Source of the DNA: a phage
Length of the DNA: 64,000 nt
Assembly (NCBI GenBank): GCA_024682255.1
Contig: GCA_024682255.1_4716.1
Direction: 5' to 3' (one strand)
This document shows positions 16,581 to 43,047 of the stretch, piece by piece; within the stretch, counting starts at the first letter, position 1; the number at the start of each line of letters is the position of its first letter. The notes under the pieces were generated by a model. The model had not been told where the DNA came from. It saw only the letters and a list, made by a program, of their open reading frames with translations, and did not search any database. Made by a program: the position numbers and the translations under genes.

Positions 16581-16635
16581 AAGGTAACGTTTACGTCACC
16601 TCCATGACAGTCATCATGAAGGTAATATAGTCCTG
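16581..16635. promoter_or_regulatory. promoter-like motif copy 1: AAGGTAACGTTTACG ... CATCATGAAGGTAATATAGTCC
   Basis: 19-mer CATCATGAAGGTAATATAG is identical to the copy at ~42285; lies in the divergent region between 16016..16531 (-) and 16664..17293 (+). Confidence 0.45.
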
Positions 16636-16663
16636 TTATTTTTTTCAATACGGAGAATGTAAA

Positions 16664-17293
16664 ATGAGCGAATATGGTGTTGCCCCCGTAGATGATGAAC
16701 CGCAAGAAGCACCTGATAAATTCGAGGTCCGTCTTGACGAAACCCGTAATATCCGTCAACGATTTATTCAACGTCTTGAAATGCTGTTAGATAGCGAATT
16801 CAAAGATTTCGAGCTTAATCCTGGCGCTGATAACAAAGCCATCGTCGACGTCGAAAACGTCGACCGAATAGGTAAGCTGTTGTTGAAATCGTTGGGTGAT
16901 AACGACAAAGTCGACTTAACATTGAAACGTATCAGTGCTGACCAGGCTATGAACGACAGCGCATTGAAAACAGCACAGGCCCTAACCGAAACCATGCTGC
17001 GCCGCTTAGGTCAGATGGATCAACATCCTCTCGCAGCAGGGGCTGTTTATGAAGGCGAAGTCGTGAAGCCAGTCACACCTGAAGAACGTGATCGTCGACT
17101 TGGTTTTGCGTCATTGGAAGAGTTCGATAGCAAGGAGTTTTCACCAGGCGTTCTCATCCAGGGACGTGTCGAAGAAACCAGTGATGCTTTCTACGCTAGA
17201 ATGGCTCAACTGACGGCGTCGGTTCGTGAGGAGGTATCTCAGAAGATGGCTGCAGATCATCAGTCTTCGGAGGCGTCACACGAGGAGGAATAA
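16664..17293 (+). CDS. hypothetical acidic protein
   Basis: Track ORF, 209 aa; ATG with GGAGA SD; 3' end overlaps convergent ORF 17196..17984 by ~98 nt. Confidence 0.6.
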   Translation: MSEYGVAPVDDEPQEAPDKFEVRLDETRNIRQRFIQRLEMLLDSEFKDFELNPGADNKAIVDVENVDRIGKLLLKSLGDNDKVDLTLKRISADQAMNDSALKTAQALTETMLRRLGQMDQHPLAAGAVYEGEVVKPVTPEERDRRLGFASLEEFDSKEFSPGVLIQGRVEETSDAFYARMAQLTASVREEVSQKMAADHQSSEASHEEE

Positions 17294-17984
17294 AATAACT
17301 GAACCATTTTATTCCAAAGAACCGCATGAACATCACAGGTGCGTTAGAAAGTTCGATTGCTTCGTAAAGTTTGTCATAAGCCAGATCGGAATCAGGGATG
17401 GTTTCGCTGATTCGTCTGGCTACAACCAGTACGTTACAAATCGGATTGTCTTCTAACAGCATCTGATTGGGGAGGTGCCAGCGTTTGAAATCGTAAAAGA
17501 ACATCGCATTATACGTCTTACGGATTTCTGACGGATGCAGTGTGGCCGGATGACGGTAAATAATTTCAACGCTATCTTGCGCACCGAGGTATTGCTGGAT
17601 GCCTTCTTTTAACGCCGTCGCTGCATCTCCCACAAATTCAAACGGGTACGTATTCACATGAACCGAAAAATCCGGTGCGGCAATCCCTGTCAAGCGGTCT
17701 TTCATGTAATCCGCGACCACGTAACATAATCGCCACATCAACTCCGTCGGAATGCATTTATCGAGAATGGTTTCATCGATATTTGCCAACGCACCCTTAA
17801 ACTCTTCGTAAGTGTAAGTAACACCCGCCTGCTTCTCCGGCTCCAGGTTATAGGGTCGGTAATGCCATTTCTTCCCCCACTTTCTGATAGCCTCCGGATC
17901 CAACGTTGTTGCTACCGCCATTTCGATATCAAGCAGCGCCTCGAGTTCTACGTACACCGTCACTAACGCCGCATTTCCAGTCAT
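17196..17984 (-). CDS. hypothetical protein
   Basis: Track ORF, 262 aa; ATGA overlap with upstream gene. Confidence 0.6.
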   Translation of the reverse strand: MTGNAALVTVYVELEALLDIEMAVATTLDPEAIRKWGKKWHYRPYNLEPEKQAGVTYTYEEFKGALANIDETILDKCIPTELMWRLCYVVADYMKDRLTGIAAPDFSVHVNTYPFEFVGDAATALKEGIQQYLGAQDSVEIIYRHPATLHPSEIRKTYNAMFFYDFKRWHLPNQMLLEDNPICNVLVVARRISETIPDSDLAYDKLYEAIELSNAPVMFMRFFGIKWFSYFIPPRVTPPKTDDLQPSSEIPPHEPTPSVEPF

Positions 17985-18688
17985 CGTTGCTCTCCAGCTT
18001 CACCGGTTAACATCTGCATATCGGGAGACGTTTTAATTTTCTTCTCGTACTCTTTTGTTTGTTTGAATACCAACTCACCGATTTCTTCCAATTCTTCAAC
18101 GGTGACGGTATGCAAATAAAGCAACGGAATAATCCAGGTATTCGCACGAAGCATATCCCGAATATCATCAACGGTGGGTAATTCCGTAAAGAACTGTTCA
18201 TCTACCGCGAATAAATCCCGGGCGATACCGTCCACCAGTTTATGATTGCTTTCATGGATCCATGCAAAACTTCCAGCAAGATGATCGATAAGCATATCGA
18301 TGTCCTCGTCCGTTGAGAACACTGTACGGCGAACATGCGTTGTGAGGTCCATCGTAAAACCCATTAACGAAGGGGTTTCCTCAGAACGAAGTTCACGCCA
18401 AAGACGGAGCATGTTTTCAGGGATAAACAAATCATGGATGAACGTCACACTGAATTTCGTAACCCAGTCACGAATTGTTGCACCTTTGGAATATTGTTGC
18501 GGTGGGGAATACAAATACACCCAACGTTTTGTGTACGCGATAACTTCCTTTCGCATCACCGCATCTAAAACAAGCACGTAACGATCGGAAGCAAGCTCTT
18601 CTAATAAAAGCTCGAACGCATCATCACTCTCTGGGGAGAACGATCGTTTTATTTCTGCGATACGTCGTGATAACCGACCACGTAACAT
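17981..18688 (-). CDS. hypothetical protein
   Basis: Track ORF, 235 aa; part of a tightly packed minus-strand operon. Confidence 0.6.
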   Translation of the reverse strand: MLRGRLSRRIAEIKRSFSPESDDAFELLLEELASDRYVLVLDAVMRKEVIAYTKRWVYLYSPPQQYSKGATIRDWVTKFSVTFIHDLFIPENMLRLWRELRSEETPSLMGFTMDLTTHVRRTVFSTDEDIDMLIDHLAGSFAWIHESNHKLVDGIARDLFAVDEQFFTELPTVDDIRDMLRANTWIIPLLYLHTVTVEELEEIGELVFKQTKEYEKKIKTSPDMQMLTGEAGEQR

Positions 18689-18690
18689 AA

Positions 18691-19365
18691 TTAGCCCTCA
18701 TCAAGGTTATTCTGGAGATGCATCGCGGTGAGGATAACACCAACCGCCGAAACCGATTTTGCCTTGCTGTCTTCAGGGAGCTGCTCCAAGCTTACGGTAC
18801 CTGTTTCTAACAGCATACGGTTCATCGCGTTGAACTTCTTATCGTCGCCACCACGAGCCTGCATCAACTCTCGGTTCACGTTCGGCATCGACCGTCCTAA
18901 CGTCGCCTGCATTTCCGGCTGGCTCCAAGTGGAACCTTTACTATCACCCGTCGGCTGATTGGTGAGCTGGTCCTTGGTGTTGTTGTTTTTCGGAATCGAT
19001 ATTTTAGCACTCAACGTTTCGGCTTGTCGGCGGTTTGGAATCAGGTACAATCGGGTTGGGCGGTCACGAAGCACCAACTGTCCTGTTTTCTGATCGGTAA
19101 GATAAATGCGCTGGAAGAAAGGGAAACCGTATTTCTTACCGACTTCCAACGCCCGTTTTATCGTCACCTCGTTTTTGTTCATGTTGGGTACCCAGATGGG
19201 TAGAATCTCTTTCTTATCCCGGCATAAACGCATATAGGCATCAAACGTCTCATCATCGATTTCGGCAAAACGTTTTTTGTAAATAGCGTAAGTTGGGCTC
19301 GATTCACCCACCAGGTCTTTGATATACCCAAGAATGAATTTTTCTGCTGCAGCGCGGTTGGACAT
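18691..19365 (-). CDS. hypothetical protein
   Basis: Track ORF, 224 aa. Confidence 0.6.
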   Translation of the reverse strand: MSNRAAAEKFILGYIKDLVGESSPTYAIYKKRFAEIDDETFDAYMRLCRDKKEILPIWVPNMNKNEVTIKRALEVGKKYGFPFFQRIYLTDQKTGQLVLRDRPTRLYLIPNRRQAETLSAKISIPKNNNTKDQLTNQPTGDSKGSTWSQPEMQATLGRSMPNVNRELMQARGGDDKKFNAMNRMLLETGTVSLEQLPEDSKAKSVSAVGVILTAMHLQNNLDEG

Positions 19366-19374
19366 AAACGTCTC

Positions 19375-19716
19375 CTATTGTCGTGTCTGTTGCGGAAATA
19401 CCCGAAACACCTGGACAATGATGTTCTTGTCCTCGCGGTTGGCGATGTCGATCATGTGTTTTGTTCCAGGACTTTTGAAATCCCAGAACGCAATTAGATG
19501 CGTAATGACATCACCCATCCACTCATTGCGTCTGAATCCAGCACCTTTACGATAAGGGCCATCCCAATCGGCAGGAAACGTGGTGTATTTAAACCCGTAA
19601 TCCTTCGCGTAGCGGCGCACATGCAAATCAGCGCCTGAATGCGCACCGCCAGCAATGAGATGAACTTTGTCGTGAGGAAGGTTGTGTAACATCTGGTTCA
19701 TACGCTTTTCGAACAA
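19375..19716 (-). CDS. hypothetical protein, possible Rossmann-like (SLOG/DprA-like) fold
   Basis: Track ORF, 113 aa; motif HLIAGGAHSGADLH ... FPADWD..GAGFRRN ... IAFWD; assignment is tentative. Confidence 0.4.
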   Translation of the reverse strand: MFEKRMNQMLHNLPHDKVHLIAGGAHSGADLHVRRYAKDYGFKYTTFPADWDGPYRKGAGFRRNEWMGDVITHLIAFWDFKSPGTKHMIDIANREDKNIIVQVFRVFPQQTRQ

Positions 19717-19769
19717 GGGATAATCATCCCAGTAGCGTGATCCTGATACCCCTACACGATAGGGTTCGC

Positions 19770-20090
19770 TTATCTTCCACCGCGCAATGACTTTACGTTG
19801 CGTGCAATAAAGGGCGCAACGTAATCACGGAAATTATGGATCCATCCTTTAATGGGTTGGTTGTCGAGTAAGCACTCACGTACCGAAAACGTACTTACTT
19901 CTAATACGCCGAACTGTAGTCGCCAATAGCGATTGATTTCAGCTTGGGTATGTTCTAATGTCATGTACTCAGGAACACGAGCCAATAGGTCGTGTTTAAA
20001 TTGCTCAGCAATTGCTGGTTGATGTGACGCAATTGTCTGCGTGATAACATCAATCAGTTCATGTGCATGCTTGATAGCAGGTGCGGTCAT
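19770..20090 (-). CDS. hypothetical protein
   Basis: Track ORF, 106 aa. Confidence 0.5.
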   Translation of the reverse strand: MTAPAIKHAHELIDVITQTIASHQPAIAEQFKHDLLARVPEYMTLEHTQAEINRYWRLQFGVLEVSTFSVRECLLDNQPIKGWIHNFRDYVAPFIARNVKSLRGGR

Positions 20091-20102
20091 TTATTTAGCC
20101 TT

Positions 20103-21593
20103 TTATTTTTTACTCGGACGATTTAATGCGGGTACCGGGTTCTTTGGTTGTTTTGTCTTTTCATCCATCCAGTACGGGAAGTACTCACCGGTACGCATAC
20201 GCAATAAGTCCATTGTAGACAAGAACGGCAGTGGGTTAGGATCGTCCAAATACGTCCAGTAACCACGCGTGTTTAACAATACATCCCAATCGAAACCTTT
20301 TGCTTTAAGATCGTCGTACAGTTCCTGTGGGGTGCAATACAGTTGTGGGTTTTCGTAAACCTCTTGACGCCAGAGATTATGCATCTGACACAGCTCCGAC
20401 GTGATTTCCAGAGCACGCTGTAAATACTCATCCTCTTCGCAGAGAGAACGAATGGTCGTACGCTGCAACGCAACATCCGGATAAATATCCAAGTATACCG
20501 TTGAAGCACCATCCGCTGATTTACCACCTGACGCATGCATACCCCAACCACGCATCCAATCTTTATCACGCAGGTAGTGGTATTCCGTTAATGATGGTTT
20601 AACCCCTTCGCTCTGACTAACCACAATCGGGAACGGTAAGCCGGTGGGTCCGTTTTTAGCGCGCATGTTAAAGACTTGGATCAACTGCAGATCGGTATCC
20701 CCGATAAGGTTGTCACCAGGCCCACGCGGATAAAGGACGCGTTTATCGGCGTTCTGAAGAATCGTCAGTTTATCGATTTTCCAGAGGTTATTCGTATAAA
20801 ACGTGAAGCGTTCCGGGACGTTCTTAAACTTCTCATCGCCCTTAAACCCTTTCAGTTTTCGTACCGGCTGCTGTCCCGGCATACCACCAACGTTTACACC
20901 ATCACCAAGGTGGGCGGTCATGGTAATGTAGATACCCGCCGACGCTGTGAGTACTGGCATCTGTGATAGAATCTGGCTTTTCGCTGCTGCTGAACGCATC
21001 GCTTCGGCATTCAGTTTTGCACCACCCGCGGTTTCTTTATCGAATAGTGCATCAACGGCATCGATTGGTAATCCAGAGAAACTGTCGATGAGCACAACGG
21101 TCGGCAACCACCAGGTATAGTTCTCACCATGTTTATTAATAAACGGAACGGCTTTGCGTTGAGATTTATCTTTGACCTTGTCGTCACGGAATTTCTTAAT
21201 CGCATCAAACCAAATGTTACCGCTCATCTGAACAGCATCGGTGATAAACACACGTTCTTCTTCGAAAAGATCGACACCTGCGATATTAGACATGTTCATC
21301 GCAAGCGTTAAGATACGTGTTGTCGTTAACGACATTTCTGTGTCGTAAACGCTACTATTGCTGTTTGCGTAACGATCGATAACGCGTAACAAGCGAAACA
21401 TTATGAACGTGGTTTTGTTCATGTTGCCGCGAGCGCCTGCGCCCTCAACAAGCATCATGCCGCCGTTACAAATGCTTTCACCGTGTTTACCGACATAGTA
21501 CCGACCACCAGATGTGGGAATATCCATTAAGCAACCAATGTTGAGATTAAAACGCATCTCTTCACCAGGAGAAAGGTACTTATTAAGATTCAT
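20103..21593 (-). CDS. RecA/UvsX-like recombinase-family ATPase
   Basis: Track ORF, 496 aa; deviant P-loop GAGARGNMNKTT; RecA-like Walker B VVLIDSFSGL (cf. IVVDSVAAL); following AEAMRSAAAKSQIL / IYITMTAHL segments align with RecA ARMMSQAMRKL / LIFINQIR. Confidence 0.5.
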   Translation of the reverse strand: MNLNKYLSPGEEMRFNLNIGCLMDIPTSGGRYYVGKHGESICNGGMMLVEGAGARGNMNKTTFIMFRLLRVIDRYANSNSSVYDTEMSLTTTRILTLAMNMSNIAGVDLFEEERVFITDAVQMSGNIWFDAIKKFRDDKVKDKSQRKAVPFINKHGENYTWWLPTVVLIDSFSGLPIDAVDALFDKETAGGAKLNAEAMRSAAAKSQILSQMPVLTASAGIYITMTAHLGDGVNVGGMPGQQPVRKLKGFKGDEKFKNVPERFTFYTNNLWKIDKLTILQNADKRVLYPRGPGDNLIGDTDLQLIQVFNMRAKNGPTGLPFPIVVSQSEGVKPSLTEYHYLRDKDWMRGWGMHASGGKSADGASTVYLDIYPDVALQRTTIRSLCEEDEYLQRALEITSELCQMHNLWRQEVYENPQLYCTPQELYDDLKAKGFDWDVLLNTRGYWTYLDDPNPLPFLSTMDLLRMRTGEYFPYWMDEKTKQPKNPVPALNRPSKK

Positions 21594-21691
21594 TGGGTAA
21601 AGACTCCTTCGATTCTTCGACTAATTCTTAGTGTTCAGAGAATAACTATTTTTAGTTAAGACTGACAACCGCTATTTCCACGAGGACAATC

Positions 21692-22534
21692 ATGCATAAA
21701 TTTACCATTCCTGAAGACCCGATTACACTGCAGACCCTTTGGGATTCACATCGTGCTTTATCAATGGAAGGCTTTGCGCAAGACTTCGCTTCACTTACCG
21801 CAGTAACGAATCTTCGCAGTATGTTTACCAATGGTAAGAAGTTTGTTACCGATTGGCTTAAGAAACGTGATGAGACGGTTTATCCTAAAGTTTTCGATGA
21901 CCTCGATACGATTTTTAGCAACAACGCTTACAGCGATCTCATTGGGTATCGTGCTTTTATTCCGAATGGTTTAAATGCGCCGATGTCAGATTATGTTGTT
22001 GCTTTAATCCAGAGTCTGGATAGCGTAATTGGCACCATCCTACCTGATTTGGATAAGTTGACCGTAACGTGCGCTAAAGCCGTCAACGACGTTAACTTCC
22101 GTCGCAGTAGTGGTATGGCTCAAACGCTACCTAAAAACGATCCAGAGAACGTTCTAGAGACGTTACGTGCGATGTTCAAACAAGGGACGGTAACACAGAC
22201 CACTGTAGGCCGTGCATATAAGAACGAAGATGATATTCGTCAGATCGGAAAAGATCTGGATGCTTCCCGTATCCGTGCGCTTGACGTTAATCCTAAAGAC
22301 GTGAAGAAGGCAATCGAACGTTTCATGGAAGTGGCTGACCGTTTAACCGAAATCCTGGTTCAAGACTACAATGAAGGTGCGGTGAGCAACGCGATGATTC
22401 GCGATATTAGCGACGCTATCTACCAAACAGCCAAGCAGGCTGAACTGTATGCGTTTCTCGTGAACGCTTTGGCTGAGGCGATCATCGCATATAACGACAC
22501 TTGGGACGCCGTTAAGAAGAACGCGAAAAAATAA
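21692..22534 (+). CDS. hypothetical protein
   Basis: Track ORF, 280 aa, ATG start; divergent from recA-like gene. Confidence 0.6.
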   Translation: MHKFTIPEDPITLQTLWDSHRALSMEGFAQDFASLTAVTNLRSMFTNGKKFVTDWLKKRDETVYPKVFDDLDTIFSNNAYSDLIGYRAFIPNGLNAPMSDYVVALIQSLDSVIGTILPDLDKLTVTCAKAVNDVNFRRSSGMAQTLPKNDPENVLETLRAMFKQGTVTQTTVGRAYKNEDDIRQIGKDLDASRIRALDVNPKDVKKAIERFMEVADRLTEILVQDYNEGAVSNAMIRDISDAIYQTAKQAELYAFLVNALAEAIIAYNDTWDAVKKNAKK

Positions 22535-22542
22535 CATAATAA

Positions 22543-22578
22543 CCCACCCTACTACCCCGTTAAGGGCGGTAGGGTGGG
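22543..22578. terminator. hairpin CCCACCCTAC ... GGGCGGTAGGGTGGG between convergent genes
   Basis: Imperfect ~12-bp GC-rich inverted repeat between stops at 22534 (+) and 22586 (-). Confidence 0.5.
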
Positions 22579-22585
22579 ATAAGGT

Positions 22586-23017
22586 TTATTTGCCGTATAG
22601 ATGTACCACTCGTTGTGTCGTAGGAACGCAGACTCTTACCAGAAGTTTCTTAATCTCCTGACGAATCGTTGCTTTATCGTCATAATAAAGCCACGGTGGA
22701 ACGCGCTGCATTATGCACTGCACGGCTTCATCGTAGTTCGCCGTCTCATTAAGTAACGTCTCACTATCCAGATCTTTCCATGCAGTAATACCAAGTCGCG
22801 CAGCAAACATCAACGCTGAAACCGACTCAGCTATCTCCAATCGCTCATTCATATCCGCAAGACCTTTTAGCATGATGTAATTATCATCATACTGATGTAA
22901 AGTGCCATACAAACTTCCGAAGAGAAGTATACGTTTAGCTTTTGCGGTTAAGAGGAACGACAGGAGAGCGTGTTTCAACGGTTGTTTCTCACGTTCTACC
23001 TGTTCGACCATCACCAT
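22586..23017 (-). CDS. hypothetical protein (weak nucleotidyltransferase-like GS..G..DD motif)
   Basis: Track ORF, 143 aa; LLFGSLYGTLHQYDDNY. Confidence 0.5.
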   Translation of the reverse strand: MVMVEQVEREKQPLKHALLSFLLTAKAKRILLFGSLYGTLHQYDDNYIMLKGLADMNERLEIAESVSALMFAARLGITAWKDLDSETLLNETANYDEAVQCIMQRVPPWLYYDDKATIRQEIKKLLVRVCVPTTQRVVHLYGK

Positions 23018-23020
23018 TGA

Positions 23021-24547
23021 TTACTCCAACACATAACGTGGGTTACTGTATATGTTAGCCCATATACCAACGTCGTCCCCCGACTCAATAATCACAGCGA
23101 AACGAAACGCAACATCAGACTCGCGATATGTTACCGCGTACGCTTTCGTTTCCGGTGATGCTAAATAGCTCAAGTTCAGGCGTTGAGGCAGGTCTAACCC
23201 CAAGGACATGGTACAAGACGTAACGCCCTGCTTATCAGGGTTCAGTCTGTAATTCACGTCCACCTTCAAGCTTTTCGTAACCTGCGTAATCGCACTATGC
23301 ACTTTGGTAACCGTTTTGCCTTTCTTATCCTTTTCTGTTTCGAAAAGAACGTCGGTAATTTCGGTTACGACCAGACGCGGTGTGGATTCGCGGTTAGCGT
23401 CAAGCCATTCATCCAGTAACGTCTTTAAGAAGTTCAAGGAATCAATCGCACGCCAAGCAAGGTTAGGCGGATTACATGCTTCCATTAAAATGGCTGTGTT
23501 CGATCCACCTAGCGGAAGATGCACGCTCTTACCGAGGCCTGTCGGACGCATCGTAAGATCGCACTCACCCTCAAGAATATCGCGATGATATTGACGATGA
23601 TGAAGGTTATCCGTGTATGCGATATACACTGACTCCGTTGTCCCATGCTCTAATACCCGAGATGCATGCGTACGCATAATCTCAACAGCATCATCCGGCT
23701 TGCTTAGATAGATAACACTGTACGCACTATCGCTAATCCTTTTCCCTAACTCAAGACGTCCCTTGTTGTCTTTATCGGTGTTACCACCGAAATAGATGTA
23801 GCGGCCATCTTTCGCACGCTCTTGCTGCTGGTTGGTGGTAAAGTAGCAGCGTGAGAACGTAAAGAACGGGCTTATTTCCGGTTCGGGGCTCCAATACCCC
23901 TTAGCCGGAAGTTCGCGGCGTATTTGGGTTCTTACAGCCCAGTCCTGGTTTTGTGACAGATATGTTCCACGCGTTGCCAGCATATCCGCACGTTCGTTAC
24001 CAACATTGCCCTCATGTCCAGGAACGTAGCGCAGCGAAATATCGATAGCGTCGCGCTTCGCATCCCTTATCGCGCTATCGAGTTTCCGCCACCGTTCCGC
24101 ATTCATTAACGGTTTATTGTCGGATTTAACCCAGTTGTTCTCTCGCCAGTTAGCAAGATGGTTGGTGGCACCTACAACAACATATTGGCTGTCCGACAAC
24201 AGCTGGATCCGTTTTGCCCCCTTTGCTTTTCCAAGTTCAATCGCACGTATTGCGGCATCCAACTCAGCCTGATTGTTCGTTACATTGAAACCCAAAGCCT
24301 CTAACTCATCCACGTATTCCTTGGGTTCGACCAGCACAGCGTCTTTAGGAAAGTCGAGTTTAGGGTCAACATAACCGTATTGCGTTGGTTTGGGCTTCCC
24401 ACTTTTTGAGGGTTCCAAGGTGCCTTTTATTTCTTTCACCATATCGTAGGTGTAGCCGTGCACGCCGTAACCACCATACCCACTCGATGTTGGACGGGAT
24501 CCTCCATCGCAGTAGAAAACGGCACCCAGCTCAGTATTTCCTGCCAT
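23021..24547 (-). CDS. RNase H (RNase HI-like) domain protein with ~300-aa C-terminal extension of unknown function
   Basis: Track ORF 23021..24559; likely start is the second ATG (24545-24547, GAGG SD). Motifs CDGG..GYG, TNNQAELDAAIRAIE, SDSQYVV, HEGNVGNERADMLA. Confidence 0.7.
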   Translation of the reverse strand: MAGNTELGAVFYCDGGSRPTSSGYGGYGVHGYTYDMVKEIKGTLEPSKSGKPKPTQYGYVDPKLDFPKDAVLVEPKEYVDELEALGFNVTNNQAELDAAIRAIELGKAKGAKRIQLLSDSQYVVVGATNHLANWRENNWVKSDNKPLMNAERWRKLDSAIRDAKRDAIDISLRYVPGHEGNVGNERADMLATRGTYLSQNQDWAVRTQIRRELPAKGYWSPEPEISPFFTFSRCYFTTNQQQERAKDGRYIYFGGNTDKDNKGRLELGKRISDSAYSVIYLSKPDDAVEIMRTHASRVLEHGTTESVYIAYTDNLHHRQYHRDILEGECDLTMRPTGLGKSVHLPLGGSNTAILMEACNPPNLAWRAIDSLNFLKTLLDEWLDANRESTPRLVVTEITDVLFETEKDKKGKTVTKVHSAITQVTKSLKVDVNYRLNPDKQGVTSCTMSLGLDLPQRLNLSYLASPETKAYAVTYRESDVAFRFAVIIESGDDVGIWANIYSNPRYVLE

Positions 24548-24597
24548 TGTAAACCTCATTAATCATTGTCCGTATGATAGCCCAAAGTTGTACGGTA

Positions 24598-25149: not shown

Positions 25150-25203
25150 GCGTGTGTCCTTGATAGTATGAAATTTCCAATACAACTTAACCGAGGACGT
25201 CGA

Positions 25204-27173: not shown

Positions 27174-27179
27174 CATATT

Positions 27180-27211
27180 CCCTCCTCCTTCCCTGTTGGG
27201 TTGGAGGAGGG
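27180..27211. repeat. GGAGG-family hairpin repeat (reverse orientation copy): CCCTCCTCC-TT-CCC-TGTT-GGG-TT-GGAGGAGGG
   Basis: Reverse complement is identical to the core of the copies at ~43048 and ~55009. Confidence 0.6.
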
Positions 27212-27225
27212 TTATGCCGTCAAGC

Positions 27226-27275
27226 AAAAAAAAAAAATGATAGTCACAGGCTCTCCAATGAAGGAGAGCCGTGAC
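27226..27275 (-). terminator. rho-independent-type terminator for gene 27283..27984 (13-bp stem GTCACGGCTCTCC + T12 on minus strand)
   Basis: Hairpin ~27243-27275 directly after the stop, followed on the minus strand by a 12-nt T run (A12 on plus strand, ~27226-27237). Confidence 0.6.
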
Positions 27276-27282
27276 CGTCAGT

Positions 27283-27984: not shown

Positions 27985-27998
27985 CGAAAGGATCCTTC

Positions 27999-29734: not shown

Positions 29735-29757
29735 ACTTAAGTAATATAGCCGTGAAA
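29735..29757. promoter_or_regulatory. promoter-like motif copy 2: CTTAAGTAATATAGCCGTGAAA
   Basis: Shares GTAATATAGCCGTGAAA with the copy at ~42294; 31 nt from the ATG of 29053..29709 (-) and ~110 nt from the ATG of 29860..30636 (+). Confidence 0.4.
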
Positions 29758-30636: not shown

Positions 30637-30642
30637 TCATCA

Positions 30643-31280: not shown

Positions 31281-31284
31281 AAAC

Positions 31285-31316: not shown

Positions 31317-31333
31317 AAATATGCCGTTAAACG

Positions 31334-31963: not shown

Positions 31964-31979
31964 TCCCCGCTCCAATTAA

Positions 31980-34680: not shown

Positions 34681-34698
34681 CAGAAATCCTTATTTGTC

Positions 34699-37155
34699 TT
34701 AAATAATCGTGACGTGTTCGTTATATGTTTCAGGGAGAATGATGTTCGTTTTATCAAGAACCATACACTCGGCTTTACGGAATGACGCATGGTTGATTAC
34801 ATAGTGGCTGATGAACCACACTTGGCTTACACGGTGACCATCAACCAGACGACGAACAAAATCCATGGCATTAGATTGGTGCTGAGGATCAAATGTTGAT
34901 GCAAATTCATCTAACATCAACGGATAATCCGTGAACCCTTTGTAGTGCATCATCGCGATGATGAACGCGATGTTGATAATTTCCTTTTGTCCCTTACTCC
35001 CACAAACAATATCTTTTCGCGGTGTCGGATACTTCTCAGTTAAAAGCGGAAAACGATAGTTCAATCCTTGCGCGTCGATAGCACACGGAAGTATCTGAAG
35101 TTGGTATTCCCAAATACTCGCAATGATACCGTTCATGTACTCAACGAACGCGTTGATGGGACCCGCAATTGTTTCGGCAATCAGTCCGTTAGATGGACTT
35201 AACTCATCCAGAACAAGTTGTGCATAACCGAGTTGTTCTTCCACCTCTTTTTGTGTCGTTTCCAGCTGAGCCAGAAGCTGTTGGTCGGTTTTAGCTTCTT
35301 GTAGTTGCTGTTCGACATGACTTATTCGACGAACCGTATCAGACATCGCAGCACGTAACGATTTCGTGTAGAGGTGTTGCAGATACTCTAACCACAGTTG
35401 GGTTAACGCTTTATCGCTGTTATCAGAACGCACTTGATCTTCCATAATCGCCGTAATGGTTTCCAATCTACCTTCCGTAGCTGTAATGGCTTGTGTTAAC
35501 CGCTCAACGGTTGTTAACAACTCTGTCCTGTTCTTATAAAGCAATTCCCGACGTTGCTGTAACGGTTCAACATCAACTGCTTGTACACGTTCGAGCATGC
35601 CTTGAAGATGCTTCCGTTCTTGCTCGGCTTGTGTGTAACGCGCAAGTTTCTCGAACGCAAGCAACCAATCGTTAATGATTCCAATACTGCGGAATCCTAA
35701 ACCGTTTTTACGTCCTTCTTCCAGCAGATTATCCCACATGGGTTTAATGGCGTAATAATCCTTCGTCCAACGCGTTAACTGACGATGCTGTTCCATCCAG
35801 AGCGTATAGCGCTGAACCTTCTCGCTAAGCTCAGCTAACGATTTTTCTTGCTCTTCAACCCAAGCACGGCCCTTCTGAATACGCTGTTCAATACCCGCTT
35901 TGCTGGTCTTTTCTGTTTCACCAACATGAAAGCGATAGTTGCATTTTGGACAGCTGGTCTGGGGTTGATGGTTAAGGTGGTCGAGATGCGCTTCCAAATC
36001 GGCTAACGCATGTTTCGCGTTACGCAAACGCATTCTTGCCGCCTCTTCCTCCTTGATGTAAGCTTCAGCATCGTAGACGTGATAGGTGTTGTCGGTATCA
36101 ATCCATTCTTGGAGTAATTCCGTTAATGGAGCCTGAACTTGCGTGAGCTGCTGTAAACAAACCGCAGCGTCCAGATTCATCGTTAAAAGCTCACCTGGAT
36201 GATCATGCTGGAGTTGTTCGTCCAAACGTGCAAGGCGGGCTTTAATCTGATCGATATCACCTTCTCCAGACTGTTTCAACTGGTCAAGGATATTATCGAT
36301 GCCCAACAGCTCGTCAACCTGACTTTCGAGTTTCGCGTTCGCATTCGCGAGTTGTTCTCTTAGTTCTGCCAGATTCTGCTGTTCTTGTTGCGATGTTCCT
36401 CCTTGGTAACGAACAACCGCACGAAGAAGCTCGCGATTAAAATGATGGGCACGTTGTGCGGATTCCAGAAGCTGTCGTTGATCAACATCGCTGTCAAATA
36501 ACGGCAATCCCATCATCGCTTCGAGCGCTGAGCGTTGCTGTTTTAACTCTGCTTCCAATCCCTGGTGGTCGGTGCCCGTGTATTTCGCTTCAATGCGTTG
36601 TGATGTTTCAACCAACTTATTCAGTGTATGTTCGTTCACCGCTTTCAGTGAACGTACTTGTTGCTTAACAACCTGAAACAACTCGAGCGCGTAATCGACG
36701 TTAACCGGACATATCTGCGTTAATCGTTCACGACGTTTCATCGGCCCCATTTCGGTGAACTGGTAAGCTGTTTCGTAACCTAACAACAAACGAATGGTAT
36801 CGTCATTAAGTTCGAAATGTTCTTCAATCAGTTTCCATTGGGCCGGTTGTGTGCCACCACCGTTCAGGTTCTCGCTGTCGTTAACGTAGAACTCATGCTT
36901 AAACCCTTTTTCTAAACGACTGATAAGACGGTATTGTTTATTACGGTGTTCACAGCGGTACTCGTAATACCCGTCTTTATCAAAATCGGCACGCTCAGGA
37001 ACGGTCGGATACAGCAAAGGCAATAGACTACTCTTACCGGAACCATTACTGCCTAAAATGAGTTGTACGGGATTATCTGGCCGGATGACCAGCTCCCGAA
37101 TCATCCCGGTATCAAAACGATTGAATCCACGTAAGTGGAGATAGGTGCATCGCAT
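34699..37155 (-). CDS. SbcC/Rad50-like SMC-family ATPase
   Basis: Track ORF 34699..37218; M22 (ATG 37153-37155) may be the true start because the first 21 codons overlap two hairpins. Walker A LGSNGSGKSSLL, long coiled coil, zinc-hook CPKCNY, C-terminal Walker B/D-loop LMLDEFASTFD. Confidence 0.8.
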   Translation of the reverse strand: MRCTYLHLRGFNRFDTGMIRELVIRPDNPVQLILGSNGSGKSSLLPLLYPTVPERADFDKDGYYEYRCEHRNKQYRLISRLEKGFKHEFYVNDSENLNGGGTQPAQWKLIEEHFELNDDTIRLLLGYETAYQFTEMGPMKRRERLTQICPVNVDYALELFQVVKQQVRSLKAVNEHTLNKLVETSQRIEAKYTGTDHQGLEAELKQQRSALEAMMGLPLFDSDVDQRQLLESAQRAHHFNRELLRAVVRYQGGTSQQEQQNLAELREQLANANAKLESQVDELLGIDNILDQLKQSGEGDIDQIKARLARLDEQLQHDHPGELLTMNLDAAVCLQQLTQVQAPLTELLQEWIDTDNTYHVYDAEAYIKEEEAARMRLRNAKHALADLEAHLDHLNHQPQTSCPKCNYRFHVGETEKTSKAGIEQRIQKGRAWVEEQEKSLAELSEKVQRYTLWMEQHRQLTRWTKDYYAIKPMWDNLLEEGRKNGLGFRSIGIINDWLLAFEKLARYTQAEQERKHLQGMLERVQAVDVEPLQQRRELLYKNRTELLTTVERLTQAITATEGRLETITAIMEDQVRSDNSDKALTQLWLEYLQHLYTKSLRAAMSDTVRRISHVEQQLQEAKTDQQLLAQLETTQKEVEEQLGYAQLVLDELSPSNGLIAETIAGPINAFVEYMNGIIASIWEYQLQILPCAIDAQGLNYRFPLLTEKYPTPRKDIVCGSKGQKEIINIAFIIAMMHYKGFTDYPLMLDEFASTFDPQHQSNAMDFVRRLVDGHRVSQVWFISHYVINHASFRKAECMVLDKTNIILPETYNEHVTII

Positions 37156-37269
37156 GCTATGATAATCCTTCTTCGATACCTTCTGAACCACGGGTTCAGA
37201 ATGCGAAGCTGAAGACATACTTCAGCGTTATTTTCTATATCGTTATTTAAATCAGTAGGAGATTACAGC

Positions 37270-38358
37270 ATGAGCGACCTGGCAACAGACAATCGCACAA
37301 AAGGGAGTCAGCTAGCTCCAGACAACAACGTAAGCGTTTTCCGTATCTATGCCTTGGGTACTGTTGCTGCCGACTTTTCCAATAAAAGTCTGGAGGAAGA
37401 TCCTAACCAAACGCTGGAGGTCTTTCTTGATGAGATGATGTCAGGCGCTGATGGGAAAGTTGAAGCGGCGGGAAGCGTTAAAGAAGTCAGTGCAACAGAC
37501 GCTCAAGGGAACAGCTATACGGCGAAAGCGGCAACAACAACCAGCGTACAGTGTTACTGGTTACCTTTCGGCAGTAACCGGATGACAGCACCTAACTTGA
37601 GGAAAGGTCAGCGTGTGGTGGTTTGGCGAACCGCGGATGAAGAACAACTCTACTGGCAACCCAAAGGTGGGGATAGTGAGCTGATGACCATGGAATCGGT
37701 TATCCTCACCGTCAGCGCACGTCCTAGCGCTAAGAAGGACCGTAAATCGATTTCAACGGAAGACTGCTATTACCTAATGGTTGATACCTTTCTTAAGAAA
37801 GCGGTTATCGGTACCAGCGCACAGCTTGGTGAAGTTACCCAAGTTTACATGGAACTTAATCTGGACGAGGGTTACCTACAGGTTGCGGACAGCGTTCATC
37901 AAAATCTGCTGTTACTCCATTTCGTTGAACATATGCTGCGTTATCAAAACCAGGACGACAGCATCATCGACGTGACAAAAAAGAACATCACATTCCAATG
38001 CGAGGATACGCTCAAAGCAATTGCTAAGAACGATATCCGAATGAAAGCAAAAAACATTTATACCGAATGTGAGAACTTCGAGCGTACCAGCAAAACAGAA
38101 AGCGTTACGAGTCAGAATGTTTCTTTGAAGTGTGATCGTTACACCGCGCAAGTATCAGGACAGACCACGTTTAAATGTCCGAATACGGTATTCACTGGAG
38201 CTGTAAGCTTCACAGGTGAAGACGGAAACACGATGACGTTGAATGGGAACTTCATACACATCGCAGGCTCTTGGCGTTCACCAACCGGAACAAACGTATA
38301 CACTCACGACCACGGTGGCGTTAAATCCGGTAGTAGTAGAACCGACCCGTTCCAATAA
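37270..38358 (+). CDS. hypothetical protein
   Basis: Track ORF, 362 aa; ATG with AGGAGA SD. Confidence 0.6.
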   Translation: MSDLATDNRTKGSQLAPDNNVSVFRIYALGTVAADFSNKSLEEDPNQTLEVFLDEMMSGADGKVEAAGSVKEVSATDAQGNSYTAKAATTTSVQCYWLPFGSNRMTAPNLRKGQRVVVWRTADEEQLYWQPKGGDSELMTMESVILTVSARPSAKKDRKSISTEDCYYLMVDTFLKKAVIGTSAQLGEVTQVYMELNLDEGYLQVADSVHQNLLLLHFVEHMLRYQNQDDSIIDVTKKNITFQCEDTLKAIAKNDIRMKAKNIYTECENFERTSKTESVTSQNVSLKCDRYTAQVSGQTTFKCPNTVFTGAVSFTGEDGNTMTLNGNFIHIAGSWRSPTGTNVYTHDHGGVKSGSSRTDPFQ

Positions 38359-38379
38359 AAAAAAAGAAATGCTATACAA

Positions 38380-38414
38380 CCTCCTTCCCTAGCCATCAAG
38401 GCCGGGGAAGGAGG
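38380..38414. terminator. GGAGG-family hairpin CCTCCTTCCC ... GGGAAGGAGG flanked by A-run and T-run
   Basis: 10-bp stem; A9 upstream and T-rich downstream; between convergent stops 38358 (+) and 38430 (-). Confidence 0.6.
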
Positions 38415-38429
38415 ATTATAGTTTATTTA

Positions 38430-38819
38430 TTAACGCGTTGCGTTCTGGATGATTTCTTTTCCGATCTTAACCAAAGCGGGTATCTGCACAGCGGTTGCGC
38501 CTCGATGACGAAACGCGGTCGTTAACGCAGTATCGATACTCACCGCACGTCCATGAAGACGATCGAAATAGACTTGAGTGATTGCGGTAGCGTAATCCTT
38601 TCGCTGTTTCTTGGTTTGGCTCAACAGCGCCGCACTACGACTAACGATGAAGTAAGCGATTAAGAAGAACGCCGCTGACCGCGAACCAGGTAGAAAACCT
38701 TGTCGCTTAGGAAGCATCTCACAATCGCGAACAGAATTATCGTTCGCGAGCTCTTCCATGTCAACACGGCATAATTTTGCATAGGTGTGGAGATAGTGGG
38801 TAAAAGTTGAATTTAACAT
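38430..38819 (-). CDS. hypothetical protein (one predicted TM segment)
   Basis: Track ORF, 129 aa. Confidence 0.5.
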   Translation of the reverse strand: MLNSTFTHYLHTYAKLCRVDMEELANDNSVRDCEMLPKRQGFLPGSRSAAFFLIAYFIVSRSAALLSQTKKQRKDYATAITQVYFDRLHGRAVSIDTALTTAFRHRGATAVQIPALVKIGKEIIQNATR

Positions 38820-38924
38820 TTTCTTTCCTCGATTACAATGAGTTCAATGTATAGCTTAAACGTCACAGAACGACGTATAACGGTTTGTTTTAATTTCTAA
38901 GGGGTTTCCTTATCTACGATTGAA

Positions 38925-39287
38925 TTAAAGCGTTCTGAAGAGTTCTGTAGCGTTCTCGTCACGTAAACAGGCTTCGTTCAACAATTCAGCTAACAGCTTC
39001 GACCGAACTTCAACAAATGTCCTGAGGCGATGCTCCCATTCTAAACGGATAGTGTAAGTATTATCCAGGTTTTTGTAGTCAACGACAGATACCGAGCAGC
39101 GGGGTTCACGTTTGTTCACAGCATCCCAAACATCACGGATAACCGTCACGCCTTTCTTGGTACACGTAAACGTTAAAATAAAGCGATTATTCGCTGCTTC
39201 TTCACGGACATGACTAAATTCACTTCGTAACGATGAGACTTTGATAAGTCGGTCAATAGCTAACGATAAACCGATACGTTGTTGCAT
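38925..39287 (-). CDS. hypothetical protein
   Basis: Track ORF, 120 aa. Confidence 0.5.
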   Translation of the reverse strand: MQQRIGLSLAIDRLIKVSSLRSEFSHVREEAANNRFILTFTCTKKGVTVIRDVWDAVNKREPRCSVSVVDYKNLDNTYTIRLEWEHRLRTFVEVRSKLLAELLNEACLRDENATELFRTL

Positions 39288-39288
39288 A

Positions 39289-39714
39289 TCAAATCCCCTC
39301 TTTCAGAATCTCATTAAGACCGTCAGTAATCCAGTCGAACTTCGTCTTAATCATGGCTGGGTTCAATCCATATACTTCCCACACAAGCTGGGGTTTATGT
39401 GTTCCATCGTCCAAACAAAGCACATCGATTGAGAGTACCATACCACCCGTCAATTTCATGTTCTCGCAACTACGAAGATATGCGGATTCTAGCAATACTT
39501 TCCCTAACGCAGTGCAAGCAAATGTTAACCGGGAAGAGTACAGGTACGATGACGTTTTACAGTAGGTTGCTGATATCGGTTGAATATGTTTGCGGAGTTT
39601 GGCGTCTTCACGTAAAAGCAATAACGTGTGATGTAACCGCGTATGCTCGGTAACCGATGAGCTATACTCACCGATACACTCTTCGGCGACTGATTTAGGC
39701 CATTTAATTTTCAT
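39289..39714 (-). CDS. hypothetical protein (paralog of 39730..40173)
   Basis: Track ORF; N-terminus MKIKWPKSVAEE vs MEIKFCKSIAIV in the neighbour. Confidence 0.5.
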   Translation of the reverse strand: MKIKWPKSVAEECIGEYSSSVTEHTRLHHTLLLLREDAKLRKHIQPISATYCKTSSYLYSSRLTFACTALGKVLLESAYLRSCENMKLTGGMVLSIDVLCLDDGTHKPQLVWEVYGLNPAMIKTKFDWITDGLNEILKEGI

Positions 39715-39729
39715 GTTCGATTCCTCGTA

Positions 39730-40173
39730 TTAACACTGTGTTCCATTCGATAAGCGGGTGGTATCAAAACGATCCAGTTGGTGTACAATGCTATCAGCAA
39801 CACGATGCAAATAGTGTATTTTGTCCATTCGTGAAATCGCAGAAATCGTCCAGCAAGCCTCTGACGTCCAATAGGTGCCGTCTTCACTAAGGCTAACGTT
39901 ATAAACTAACTTCGTCATCACATTTCTCGCCTTATGCTCAGCAGACCAGAATATGTTTTCTAACACATCCTTCCCCGTTTGTGAAAACACGAACCCAAGC
40001 TTCACGTCGAAGTCGGATGCTTCAAGATTAACGCAGTGAAGATGATTCTCTAACGGCGCAAAAGAGGCTAAACGTTCCAGCGTATGTTGCAGTGTGGGAT
40101 GATCGAGCTTTTCGAGATCATCCACAGGTCGTTCAGGTACAATCGCGATCGATTTACAGAATTTAATTTCCAT
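39730..40173 (-). CDS. hypothetical protein (paralog of 39289..39714)
   Basis: Track ORF, 147 aa. Confidence 0.5.
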   Translation of the reverse strand: MEIKFCKSIAIVPERPVDDLEKLDHPTLQHTLERLASFAPLENHLHCVNLEASDFDVKLGFVFSQTGKDVLENIFWSAEHKARNVMTKLVYNVSLSEDGTYWTSEACWTISAISRMDKIHYLHRVADSIVHQLDRFDTTRLSNGTQC

Positions 40174-40209
40174 GGTAGGTTCCTCTTGATAGTGGTTGAT
40201 GATAGTAAC

Positions 40210-40272
40210 GGGGACGGCGATGTCCCCTTGGTTTCTTATTGCCCCGCCCGAACCCGATGGGGTACAGGCGGG
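40210..40272 (-). terminator. pair of GC-rich hairpins (GGGGAC..GTCCCC; CCCGCC..GGCGGG)
   Basis: Inverted repeats read directly, between 40286..40693 stop and 39730..40173 start. Confidence 0.4.
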
Positions 40273-40285
40273 TGATGTTGATGCG

Positions 40286-40693
40286 TTATAGCGGCATCAG
40301 ACGTTCTTTAAGTTGGGTTAACTTATTCGCAACGATGGTCTCAACATCGATCATCTTGTTCATGTTGTCGAGGGTATCCTGCCAGATGAAAATATCCACG
40401 GAACCGGTTCCGACTAACGCGTTCTCAGGACGATGGTCGCGGGTCACGTAGCGTGGTCTCTGCGGGCAGGTTTGTAACTCGATCCAAAGCGCATCTAACG
40501 GACCGTGGTCCGTGACACCTAAGGCGAAGAATTCACCTCTTACGACCAGAACATCATCAGCCGTCCTGACACGGGTTGATCCTTCGTACACCAATTCCAT
40601 CTTTGCTCGGCAGGCCGGGTTCCCGTTCCACGCCTGGACGGCATCGGCAAGGGCTATTGACGTTGCGGTGGTGTTCGTTTGATCATGTTGCAT
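40286..40693 (-). CDS. hypothetical protein
   Basis: Track ORF, 135 aa. Confidence 0.5.
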   Translation of the reverse strand: MQHDQTNTTATSIALADAVQAWNGNPACRAKMELVYEGSTRVRTADDVLVVRGEFFALGVTDHGPLDALWIELQTCPQRPRYVTRDHRPENALVGTGSVDIFIWQDTLDNMNKMIDVETIVANKLTQLKERLMPL

Positions 40694-40771
40694 TCTAAGC
40701 TCCTCAATCGTTCTACAACGAACTTTTAATGGAAGGGAATATGTTTCCCTTCTTTGGATTCGTTTATTGCG

Positions 40772-41047
40772 TTATACGGCTTTTCTGTGCGCGTAGAACG
40801 CCTTCGTTCCGTTGTTGATTGCTTCAACCACATCCCGGGTTAACACAACGGCGTTATCGCTTCGAGACGACGGTGCGTAATACCCTTCACCGTTCTCGGT
40901 AATCAGGCGATAACGGACTAAGCCTATGCTCGGTTCAACACGTAGCACCTTTTCAAGTTTGTATTTGATGATCTTCGTCAGGCTGACTGTGTCTGACGCG
41001 TAGATTGCTTTATAAACCTTGTTCTTTGTTGTCGGTTTCATCAACAT
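40772..41047 (-). CDS. hypothetical protein
   Basis: Track ORF, 91 aa. Confidence 0.45.
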   Translation of the reverse strand: MLMKPTTKNKVYKAIYASDTVSLTKIIKYKLEKVLRVEPSIGLVRYRLITENGEGYYAPSSRSDNAVVLTRDVVEAINNGTKAFYAHRKAV

Positions 41048-41087
41048 GATTTCTGTTGTATTTTCCTTTTCGCTTGTTGGTGTTGGA

Positions 41088-41441
41088 TTAAGGTTTAGGT
41101 TCCGTTTTGTGTTGTGCGAGTAGTATGTTGATCTGCTCCCGTTGTTCTTTTAAGCATGCGGGAAGCTGGTCTTCCCGTACCGTTCCGATTTCCAACGTGA
41201 TGTACCAGCGTTGTTCGGAAGCCTGCCATTGAAAACTGCTCTGTAAACGAAGGATGCTAGGATCACGTACCTTGTTTGCGCTGTAGCGGTTGAACCAAAC
41301 CAGGTAAGCGGCTTTTCCTTCCTCGTCGGCAACGTAACGCTGCACGCTGTTCTTGCCTTTGTTCTCGTATCCTGTTGTACGTATCATGCGAACGTTTCTC
41401 CTGCAGCGTGTTGCGGATGGCGTAGCATGGTAGCATCCCAT
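41088..41441 (-). CDS. hypothetical protein
   Basis: Track ORF, 117 aa; N-terminus overlaps upstream gene, start uncertain. Confidence 0.4.
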   Translation of the reverse strand: MGCYHATPSATRCRRNVRMIRTTGYENKGKNSVQRYVADEEGKAAYLVWFNRYSANKVRDPSILRLQSSFQWQASEQRWYITLEIGTVREDQLPACLKEQREQINILLAQHKTEPKP

Positions 41442-42166
41442 TGTACGAACCGGCTCCGGCTTACCCGCATCATGATGGATTCATCGTCAAGCCCTGGTTG
41501 CACAACCGGTAACCAACGTTCGTTAAGCACCTTCGCTTCAACGCGTTTCTTGCGTGGGTTGTAACGCACCCCGCTAACCCAAGCGAATCCAAGTGGATGC
41601 ACAACCCGTGGATAATACATGCGAAGCAATTGATGCATCCGATCCGTTGCCTCCAAGCTCGCATCCGCCATGTAAGGTTTCACCATGGTAAGCTTTTTGG
41701 TATAATACGTACCAACGGTATGGTTACGCCAACTTGGCAAGGCATGATCCCCTTCTCTCAGTTTGCTATCCGGGTTCATCGGCCAGACCTGCTGTTTACC
41801 GGCCAGCATCGCGTACTGCCGATCAACGCAACGAACCTGATCGGCGAACAATGGATCCAGGATATCATCCACCGCACCCTTATTGCGATAACCGTGATGT
41901 ACCACCAACCTGCTTGCGCTCATCCGTTGCGGATGCTGGCTCTTATGCGCATACAGTCCTCCGTCACCGCGAGCGTCGTAAAGATAACCGCATGCGCCAC
42001 GCCATATCACCTTGCCTACGGTTCTCTCGTCTTCAAGCAGCATCGTCGGTCCATCAAGCAAATTGGTGAACCATTGCACCTTCACGCATTCCGCTTGAAC
42101 GCACTCAGGTAATGCCTGATACTCTTTTTGGGTGTATAAGGTATCAAAAATGATTTCATCGTTCAT
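41384..42166 (-). CDS. hypothetical protein
   Basis: Track ORF, 260 aa; ATG with GAGGAA SD. Confidence 0.6.
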   Translation of the reverse strand: MNDEIIFDTLYTQKEYQALPECVQAECVKVQWFTNLLDGPTMLLEDERTVGKVIWRGACGYLYDARGDGGLYAHKSQHPQRMSASRLVVHHGYRNKGAVDDILDPLFADQVRCVDRQYAMLAGKQQVWPMNPDSKLREGDHALPSWRNHTVGTYYTKKLTMVKPYMADASLEATDRMHQLLRMYYPRVVHPLGFAWVSGVRYNPRKKRVEAKVLNERWLPVVQPGLDDESIMMRVSRSRFVQWDATMLRHPQHAAGETFA

Positions 42167-43047
42167 CTAAAAAGTTCCTCTGTTTCACGTTAATTAAACA
42201 ACGTATTGATTTCTGGTAACGATAACAATCCTAGTGATGTTATCAAAAAGGTAACGCTTACGCGTCGCGTTCATGATGCCATGCATCATGAAGGTAATAT
42301 AGCCGTGAAAGGATTTGTGTTACAGAAAGGGTTTTGTTGTTTTTAAGAAGAGATGGATTTAGAAGAGGTGTTGCAAGCAAGGAAGGTAAACGAGGATAGG
42401 TATTTTGATTTAAGTAAGTAAGATGTTATCTGTATTCGTTAAAAATGTATTGTCTAAGTTATCTTGTTTATCTTAGGTTATGTCTTATTGTTTAATCGTT
42501 TAATATTTTTATCTAAGTAGGTTTAACTCTATCTTGTTTGTATATTTAAATTAATTTAAAGTAGATCAATAAGCTTATCTTCAAAACAATGGATAACATG
42601 TGTTTACTACCTTAACGGTAACACATGTCATCTGTGCATTCACTCCGTTATCACTTCGTTACATGCTTATCAACGTTTTGTCTTCACAAAACGTTCAACT
42701 CAAAAAACCATTTGTGATACTCTTCTTCACGTTGTTCATCAGAGTATCTCGTCTATACTCATTGCATTCGTATACGACATAACCGTTATACGCTAACGCT
42801 ACGCTTATAGCTTGATAACTCTAAGGATAAAAACATAAACTCGCTTCGCTCGTTTAGTTTTTCTTTTTCTTAGAGTTATCCTGTTGCTCGTCTCTAAAGG
42901 ACTTCGCTCCTCCCCCGTCCCCCGAAGGGGCCGAGGTCGTGGAAATTTTACTTTCCAAATACATTTACAACATCTGTAAACTTTTACTCCAGGTACTTAA
43001 TCTTATCATTAGAAATTATAAAAGAGAAGAATAAACACAAACATAAA
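42167..43047. other. AT-rich gene-free region (~0.9 kb) with TTATCTT-type repeats
   Basis: No ORF with SD. Repeated TTATCTT/TTATCTA units (~42459-42540); promoter-like motif copy 3 at ~42248-42310; hairpin AACGTTTTG-tcttca-CAAAACGTT (~42672-42695); CCCC-UUCG-GGGG hairpin on minus strand (~42915-42930). Confidence 0.5.
42248..42310. promoter_or_regulatory. promoter-like motif copy 3: AAGGTAACGCTTACG ... CATCATGAAGGTAATATAGCCGTGAAA
   Basis: Same bipartite motif as copy 1; ~127 nt from the ATG of 41384..42166 (-). Confidence 0.45.

Follow-up and report, generated by a model that had tools for sequence, protein, structure and literature searches.

The window analysed here, a 64,000-nt stretch of phage DNA (contig GCA_024682255.1_4716.1 of GenBank assembly GCA_024682255.1), carries three copies of a conserved intergenic motif, designated P1, P2, and P3, which are very probably early promoters of a Goslar-like chimallivirus, directed along the minus strand and read by the injected virion RNA polymerase (vRNAP). 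Under this interpretation, the phage would inject vRNAP with its DNA and the enzyme would read the early promoters on the minus strand, with transcription starting at an invariant G located 7 nt past an AT-rich core and the resulting mRNAs spanning operons of small genes without detectable homologues. Early vRNAP promoters are the best explanation for the motif because its copies align without gaps to sites in phiKZ and are built on the core-(6N)-G(+1) pattern also known from early promoters mapped in AR9, phiKZ, and phiR1-37.

Escherichia phage vB_EcoM_Goslar (NC_048170, 237,307 bp), a nucleus-forming jumbo phage of the Chimalliviridae that infects E. coli, matches the window at 96.8-97.8% identity; the window corresponds to Goslar positions 210100-237303 and runs on into positions 1-36737. 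Goslar, represented by two records, was the sole matching phage in the phage collection, and two further Goslar-like contigs were found in IMG/VR. For genome-wide scans, the window was joined with Goslar 36738-210099 into a hybrid genome of 237,362 bp, which was searched with a position weight matrix trained on nine sites and assessed by leave-one-out scoring and against 30 block-shuffled genomes. The comparison with phiKZ covered 35 kb of phiKZ sequence.

The original prediction, made from the DNA letters alone, had described a promoter-like motif recurring in the window, and its description of the copies holds well. The 19-mer CATCATGAAGGTAATATAG is present as exact copies at 16612-16630 (P1) and 42284-42302 (P2) on the plus strand (0.02 expected from shuffles), with no additional copies in the window at ≤3 mismatches. 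The third copy, at 29741 (P3), has GTAATATAGCCGTGAAA in common with the copy at 42294, as had been noted. Measured from the cores, the minus-strand genes begin 91, 128, and 32 nt downstream, at 16531, 42166, and 29709, respectively, in line with the proposed range of 31-130 nt. On the minus strand the core reads CTATATTAC, exact matches to which were found three times in the window and six times in Goslar, all of them on the minus strand, intergenic, and just upstream of a minus-strand gene. Alignment of these sites yielded a longer minus-strand consensus, TTAAT.CA.....TTTCACGGC-TATATTAC-TTA.GTGA. By itself, the 8-nt sequence TATATTAC shows no significant enrichment in the window (4 occurrences versus 2.1 expected), but each of its copies is on the minus strand, including an intragenic one at 15790 (Table 1), which is judged to be a chance copy rather than a promoter. 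The weaker TATATT-like cores suggested upstream of 53718 and 37270 did not stand up: on the plus strand these read AATATTAC and CTATATCG, score at background level, and have no flanking consensus.

Genome-wide scans separated the motif sharply from background. In the hybrid genome, TATATTAC occurs 10 times on the minus strand and is absent from the plus strand, and the matrix returned 12 matches scoring at least 30.6, the next best match scoring 9.9 and the plus-strand maximum being 9.3. Leave-one-out scores ranged from 25.8 to 50.5, compared to a maximum of 14.3 across the 30 shuffled genomes, and 3 of the 12 matches lie outside the training set, all being TACATTAC variants upstream of the minus-strand genes gp040, gp046, and gp075. 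The 12 copies conform to the consensus ..TAAT.CAAAA..TTTCACG.C-TA(T/C)ATTAC-CTA.GT-G(+1)A, with an AT-rich core of 8 nt at approximately -14 to -7, which is exactly TATATTAC in 9 copies and TACATTAC in 3. A G follows the core at 7 nt in all 12 copies, with an A next to it in 11. According to the Goslar annotation, 11 of the 12 copies are intergenic (P about 6e-12, the genome fraction outside genes being 7.7% by a greedy open reading frame [ORF] model), and all 12 are on the strand of the gene concerned. The suggestion that the motif is of promoter type and acts on the minus strand is supported. The plus-strand neighbours are incidental, all 12 copies being co-oriented and only 4 located in divergent intergenic regions.

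The genes following the promoter copies include chmA (gp246), which encodes the nuclear shell protein and is itself followed by the gene for a subunit of the non-virion RNA polymerase (nvRNAP), gp159, encoding an HD-domain protein, and runs of small homologue-less genes, and the motif is missing upstream of the structural-gene blocks of the hybrid genome. The chmA copy is positioned 73-80 nt upstream of the gene, with a predicted start 66 nt upstream of the ATG, at Goslar 172964. In IMG/VR, scans with the extended motif retrieved only three Goslar-like contigs, to which the A-tract version of the motif added one contig of 266.7 kb. The 12th copy, with a predicted start at 49718, lies inside gp047 (Goslar 49584-49772), a hypothetical ORF of 62 codons; either this gene is mis-annotated or the promoter is embedded in a gene. 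The sites with TACATTAC following TTTC(A/G)CGAC (Goslar 43266, 49732, 86705, and approximately 15058, on the minus strand) form a promoter sub-class with a core resembling that of phage EL, which might differ in strength or timing.

An AT-rich motif at approximately -10 of early operons has been described in every jumbo phage encoding its own RNA polymerases, and wherever transcripts were profiled, its role as an early promoter was confirmed (PMC7598289). In phiKZ, early promoters of the vRNAP class have the core TATATTAC, with 28-32 mapped sites (PMC7058600, PMC8244752), and the same octamer is tabulated as the predicted phiKZ promoter (PMC7058600). We found TATATTAC six times in the phiKZ sequence, always on the gene strand. 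The 4 intergenic sites, one of which is 80 nt upstream of chmA (gp54), align without gaps to the sites of the window and Goslar as GTAT.-GAAAAAAATTT-.AG..-TATATTAC-(6N)-G, and the 2 intragenic copies have the core in common but not the flanks. The two phages thus have an identical 8-nt core, a G at the same distance of 7 nt past it, and a site at a similar position before chmA (80 nt in phiKZ and 73-80 nt in Goslar); the upstream A-tract/TTT.AG element of phiKZ is also found in the Goslar-type copies preceding gp200, chmA, gp214, and gp040. By contrast, most Goslar-type copies carry ..CA....TTTTCACGGC in place of the A-tract, 3 or 4 have TACATTAC, and there are approximately 12-13 copies compared to about 30 in phiKZ, the Goslar-type sites being predictions from a phage of E. 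coli.

Other jumbo phages provide further parallels. The predicted promoter of 201phi2-1, TTAWTAVAA_HYWTTTRARR_BTATATTACDWHDGTG (PMC7058600), matches the Goslar-type TTAAT.CA...TTTCACGG-C-TATATTAC-TTA.-GTG nearly position for position, although TTTCACGGC is longer than TTTRARRB by one base and both motifs are bioinformatic predictions. In AR9, the early consensus is AAATATATATTAT-(6N)-G(+1) and early transcripts arise without protein synthesis, an indication that the injected vRNAP makes them (PMC5312081). The Goslar-type motif shares with it the AT-rich core TATATTA(T/C), the 6-nt spacer, and the G start, but differs in the upstream half (AAATA in AR9 versus TTTCACGGC), and AR9 infects Bacillus, has uracil in its DNA, and forms no nucleus. 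In phiKZ and phiR1-37, the start is likewise conserved, 6 nt past the element (PMC5312081). Given the core-(6N)-G(+1) rule in AR9, phiKZ, and phiR1-37 and the invariant G in the copies studied here, transcription is predicted to start on the minus strand at the G at 16615 (P1), 42287 (P2), and 29734 (P3), with 5' untranslated regions of 84, 121, and 25 nt, respectively. At P1, the 19-mer would accordingly span -15 to +4. The promoters predicted for EL (..CCTACATTATY) and OBP/N1M2 (..AKATATTATYWWADTG) (PMC7058600) do not resemble the Goslar-type sites in their flanking consensus. Nevertheless, the TACATTA core of EL is found in the sites upstream of gp040, gp046, and gp075, as well as of gp021 in Goslar itself, with GTG equally spaced.

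The original prediction had left the choice between a phage RNA polymerase and a phage-modified host enzyme; considering the phiKZ alignment and the core-(6N)-G geometry, the former is the most likely reader of the promoters, by analogy the vRNAP, and the latter is less likely. Five vRNAP subunits, gp78, gp196, gp205, gp207, and gp210, were identified by mass spectrometry of Goslar virions (bioRxiv 10.64898/2026.04.21.720040), and the homologues of gp196, gp205, and gp207 are encoded in the window with 95.5-96.7% nucleotide identity to Goslar (Table 1). RNA sequencing (RNA-seq) of Goslar-infected cells revealed chmA expression 5 min post-infection, also in infections arrested at the early-infection-vesicle stage, and a figure legend in the same study places the chmA start site inside a sequence beginning 91 nt upstream of the ATG (10.1101/2023.09.20.558163), with which our predicted start agrees.

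Several points weigh against the assignment. For the gp200, gp004, and gp021 homologues, both the start positions and the early timing are predicted, and recognition by vRNAP is likewise deduced. In the published Goslar RNA-seq data, 175 of 249 genes were detected at 5 min post-infection, compared to only about 12-13 motif copies, implying either very long operons and early transcripts or additional early promoters. Finally, P1 is overlapped on the plus strand (16604-16631) by the sigma-70-like sequence ATGACA-16-TATAGT, which matches the consensus at 10 of 12 positions and precedes the plus-strand gene starting at 16664 by 33 nt. This overlap, the presence of TATATT within the core, and GTAACA-16-TATATT on the minus strand of P2 (9 of 12 matches) would be expected if the sites were host sigma-70 promoters, possibly bidirectional, with TATATT/TATAGT serving as the -10 box of the genes to either side, on both strands. 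However, the number of sigma-70 sites in scans of three regions is that expected by chance (1 versus 0.8, 3 versus 3.4, and 0 versus 0.7), the 12 copies share no -35 element at a fixed spacing, and the P1 plus-strand match is not repeated at the other sites, upholding the earlier remark that the motif does not fit a sigma-70 -35/-10 pair. Moreover, TTTCACGGC conserved directly 5' of the core, the C at core position 8, and the G 7 nt downstream are not sigma-70 features, all copies have one orientation, with 8 of 12 lacking a divergent gene, and phiKZ-type phages are described as encoding their own rifampicin-resistant RNA polymerases (PMC12908238). We therefore consider promoters of the host type most improbable.

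Recognition by the other phage enzyme, the nvRNAP, would make the sites middle or late promoters. Both polymerases are phage-encoded, and chmA of phiKZ has a middle promoter in addition to its early one (PMC8244752). Nevertheless, the phiKZ late motif consists only of TATG at the start, and middle promoters of that phage have a weak AT-rich/TACT element at approximately -22 to -24, neither being similar to the motif described here (PMC7598289, PMC8244752), which precedes chmA and clusters of small homologue-less genes and is missing before the structural-gene blocks. Thus, a middle or late class appears very unlikely.

The sequence shared by P1 and P2 extends beyond the promoter consensus, comprising CCTTCATGATG and a second box, AAGGTAACGNTTACG (AAGGTAACG(T/C)TTACG). 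This box had been placed 31-37 nt before the 19-mer, and the measured distances are 31 and 36 nt; taken alone, it is weak evidence, with 0.47 occurrences expected at ≤2 mismatches and 5 of 100 shuffles reaching 2. The role proposed for it, that of an upstream element, is not supported: relative to the predicted starts it lies within the leader, at +21..+35 in P1 and +26..+40 in P2, and it is missing from the P2 site of Goslar. A plus-strand orientation with the box as an upstream element is also rejected, given that all copies are minus-oriented and the box is within the leader.

In both leaders, the box is part of a module in which a hairpin with a U-rich tail is accompanied by a partial direct repeat (TTACCTTC..TGATG) of the initiation region. 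The P1 leader (+1..+52) folds into a single long imperfect hairpin (minimum free energy -22.4 kcal/mol over 60 nt, z = -3.0) with the tip GGUGACG-UAAA-CGUUACC, followed by UUCUUGUG, and its initiation region is partly repeated in direct orientation (TTACCTTC..TGATGG). The P2 leader begins with a 5'-terminal hairpin, GAUGC-AUG-GCAUC (+1..+13, the G at 42287 being +1), and contains a second one, ACGC-GUAA-GCGU, followed by ACCUUUUUGA. The latter, extended to GACGC-GUAA-GCGUU and together with ACCUUUUUGA, was called terminator-like in a simple scan (42266->42253); the P1 hairpin was not called by the same scan. The module is present at the P1 site in all four Goslar-like genomes, three of which have a C-A mismatch in the P1 stem, and compensatory changes were not seen. 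At the P2 site, by contrast, Goslar has a TACATTAC core without the module of approximately 40 nt (window 42154-42347 versus Goslar 14960-15110), and the window and the IMG/VR contig 3300011560 (positions 3000-3193) have both TATATTAC and the module, which in the contig is bracketed by a 15-nt direct repeat, TTACCTTCATGATGC.

The polymorphism at P2 is suggestive of gene conversion or slippage involving different copies of the promoter, and the leader module has probably spread or been lost via recombination between promoters. The long identity between P1 and P2 thus has two components, the promoter consensus and a piece of leader that recombination or slippage among the copies has inserted or removed. 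Could a recent duplication, or gene conversion from one intergenic region to another, explain the whole identity, with no sequence-specific function involved? The P1-P2 identity does exceed the family consensus, by CCTTCATGATG and the leader box, and the absence of the leader segment from the Goslar P2 site and its bracketing by TTACCTTCATGATGC in contig 3300011560 speak for such an event. Yet duplication accounts for the extra identity and not for the core, as 12 dispersed copies retain a 30-nt consensus, orientation, and position amid unrelated flanks, and the motif recurs in phiKZ, with no flanking DNA in common. As a full account of the motif, duplication is extremely unlikely.

Hairpins at the very 5' end are not restricted to P1 and P2. 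In 6 of the 12 predicted early transcripts, a hairpin begins exactly at +1 within the first 30 nt, compared to a background of 16% of GA-starting 30-mers (binomial P about 0.006, a post hoc test), and P1 becomes a seventh case when 60 nt are folded. The leaders concerned are 16586-16615 and 42258-42287 in the window, both on the minus strand, and those of gp046, gp075, gp105, gp182, and chmA in Goslar. These hairpins indirectly support the predicted start sites and may indicate 5'-end protection of early mRNAs, although any function of the leader hairpins is deduced from the predicted folds. A stronger interpretation, namely, that the leader module is a functional transferable cassette rather than a product of neutral shared ancestry and that early mRNAs are designed to carry a stem-loop at their very 5' end, we regard as doubtful. 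If it were true, the stem-loop would protect transcripts from 5'-end-dependent decay, tag them for export out of the early-infection vesicle, or cause attenuation of early transcription, and the conserved promoter core would be where recombination transfers the cassette from one promoter to another. The hairpins of P1 and P2, each with a U-rich tract 20-45 nt past the predicted start, are reminiscent of the terminators in 5' untranslated regions and the short leader RNAs described in phiKZ (PMC10914365). Unlike those terminators, the Goslar-type stems are short (4-7 bp) and lack the conserved phiKZ terminator motif, and the element, known here from sequence alone, is missing from P2 of Goslar.

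Table 1. Coordinates of the predicted promoters, leaders, and associated genes in the window.
Feature	Position	Strand	Details
Predicted early promoter P1	16615..16655	-	Upstream of the Goslar gp200 homologue; core TATATTAC 16629->16622; A-tract upstream element TTGAAAAAAAT at about 16648->16638; leave-one-out matrix score 32.1
Predicted transcribed leader of P1	16564..16614	-	Box AAGGTAACGTTTACG at 16581-16595 (+21..+35)
First gene after P1	16016..16531	-	171 aa; Goslar gp200 homologue, 99% nucleotide identity
Predicted early promoter P2	42287..42327	-	Upstream of the Goslar gp021 homologue; TTTCACGGC-TATATTAC, core 42301->42294; leave-one-out score 40.1
Leader module of P2	42248..42286	-	Box at 42248-42262 (+26..+40)
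First gene after P2	41384..42166	-	260 aa; Goslar gp021 homologue
Predicted early promoter P3	29734..29774	-	Upstream of the Goslar gp004 homologue; TTTTTCACGGC-TATATTAC, core 29748->29741; leave-one-out score 42.4
First gene after P3	29053..29709	-	218 aa; Goslar gp004 homologue
Intragenic TATATTAC	15790..15797	-	In a coding region; upstream and downstream consensus both missing; outside the 45 best matrix matches
vRNAP subunit gene	18691..19365	-	Goslar gp196 homologue, 96.7% nucleotide identity
vRNAP subunit gene	3720..5240	-	Goslar gp205 homologue, by sequence identity to Goslar
Large vRNAP subunit gene, 5' part	1..1471	-	Goslar gp207 homologue; cut at the window edge

The first genes downstream of P1, P2, and P3 had no match in Pfam, and their PHROGs matches were solely to families of "unknown function". 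The gp021 homologue leads a series of small minus-strand ORFs, the homologues of gp020-gp014. Directly upstream of P2, approximately 800 nt (42310-43090) are without a convincing ORF in a genome that is otherwise 92% coding. This region is AT-rich (41% G+C) and includes an inverted repeat with 20-nt arms (42814-42880); a search for RNA genes or repeats in it returned no Rfam or tRNA match and only trivial repeats. A G+C-rich hairpin at 43048-43079 adjoins the stop codon of the minus-strand gene at 43094-43993. A group I intron (Rfam RF00028, 57.9 bits) is located at 1718-2180 on the minus strand, with genes for vRNAP subunits on both sides, adjoining a minus-strand ORF (2162-3646) that is annotated in Goslar as similar to phiKZ ORF179 (gp206). 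Positions 2043-3148 are the part of the window least conserved with respect to Goslar, with 88-92% identity compared to approximately 97% elsewhere.

The promoter class itself is well known and its occurrence reveals no new mechanism, but no published early-promoter motif for Goslar-type phages was found in the literature, and its presence in such a phage is a new annotation. The result is a sequence-level map of predicted early transcription starts, with 12-13 promoters genome-wide, three of them in the window, and predictions at single-nucleotide resolution. Goslar being the E. coli model for nucleus-forming phages and the early-infection vesicle, these sites are of practical use. They could serve to drive reporter or selectable genes placed in the phage genome early in infection, a use already made of the phiKZ consensus promoter (PMC12676376), to delimit the genes of the first wave, most of which here lack detectable homologues, and for in vitro study of DNA recognition by a sigma-less RNA polymerase with split subunits. 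Collectively, the near-identity of the motif in Pseudomonas and E. coli phages that share little DNA implies strong conservation of vRNAP promoter specificity.

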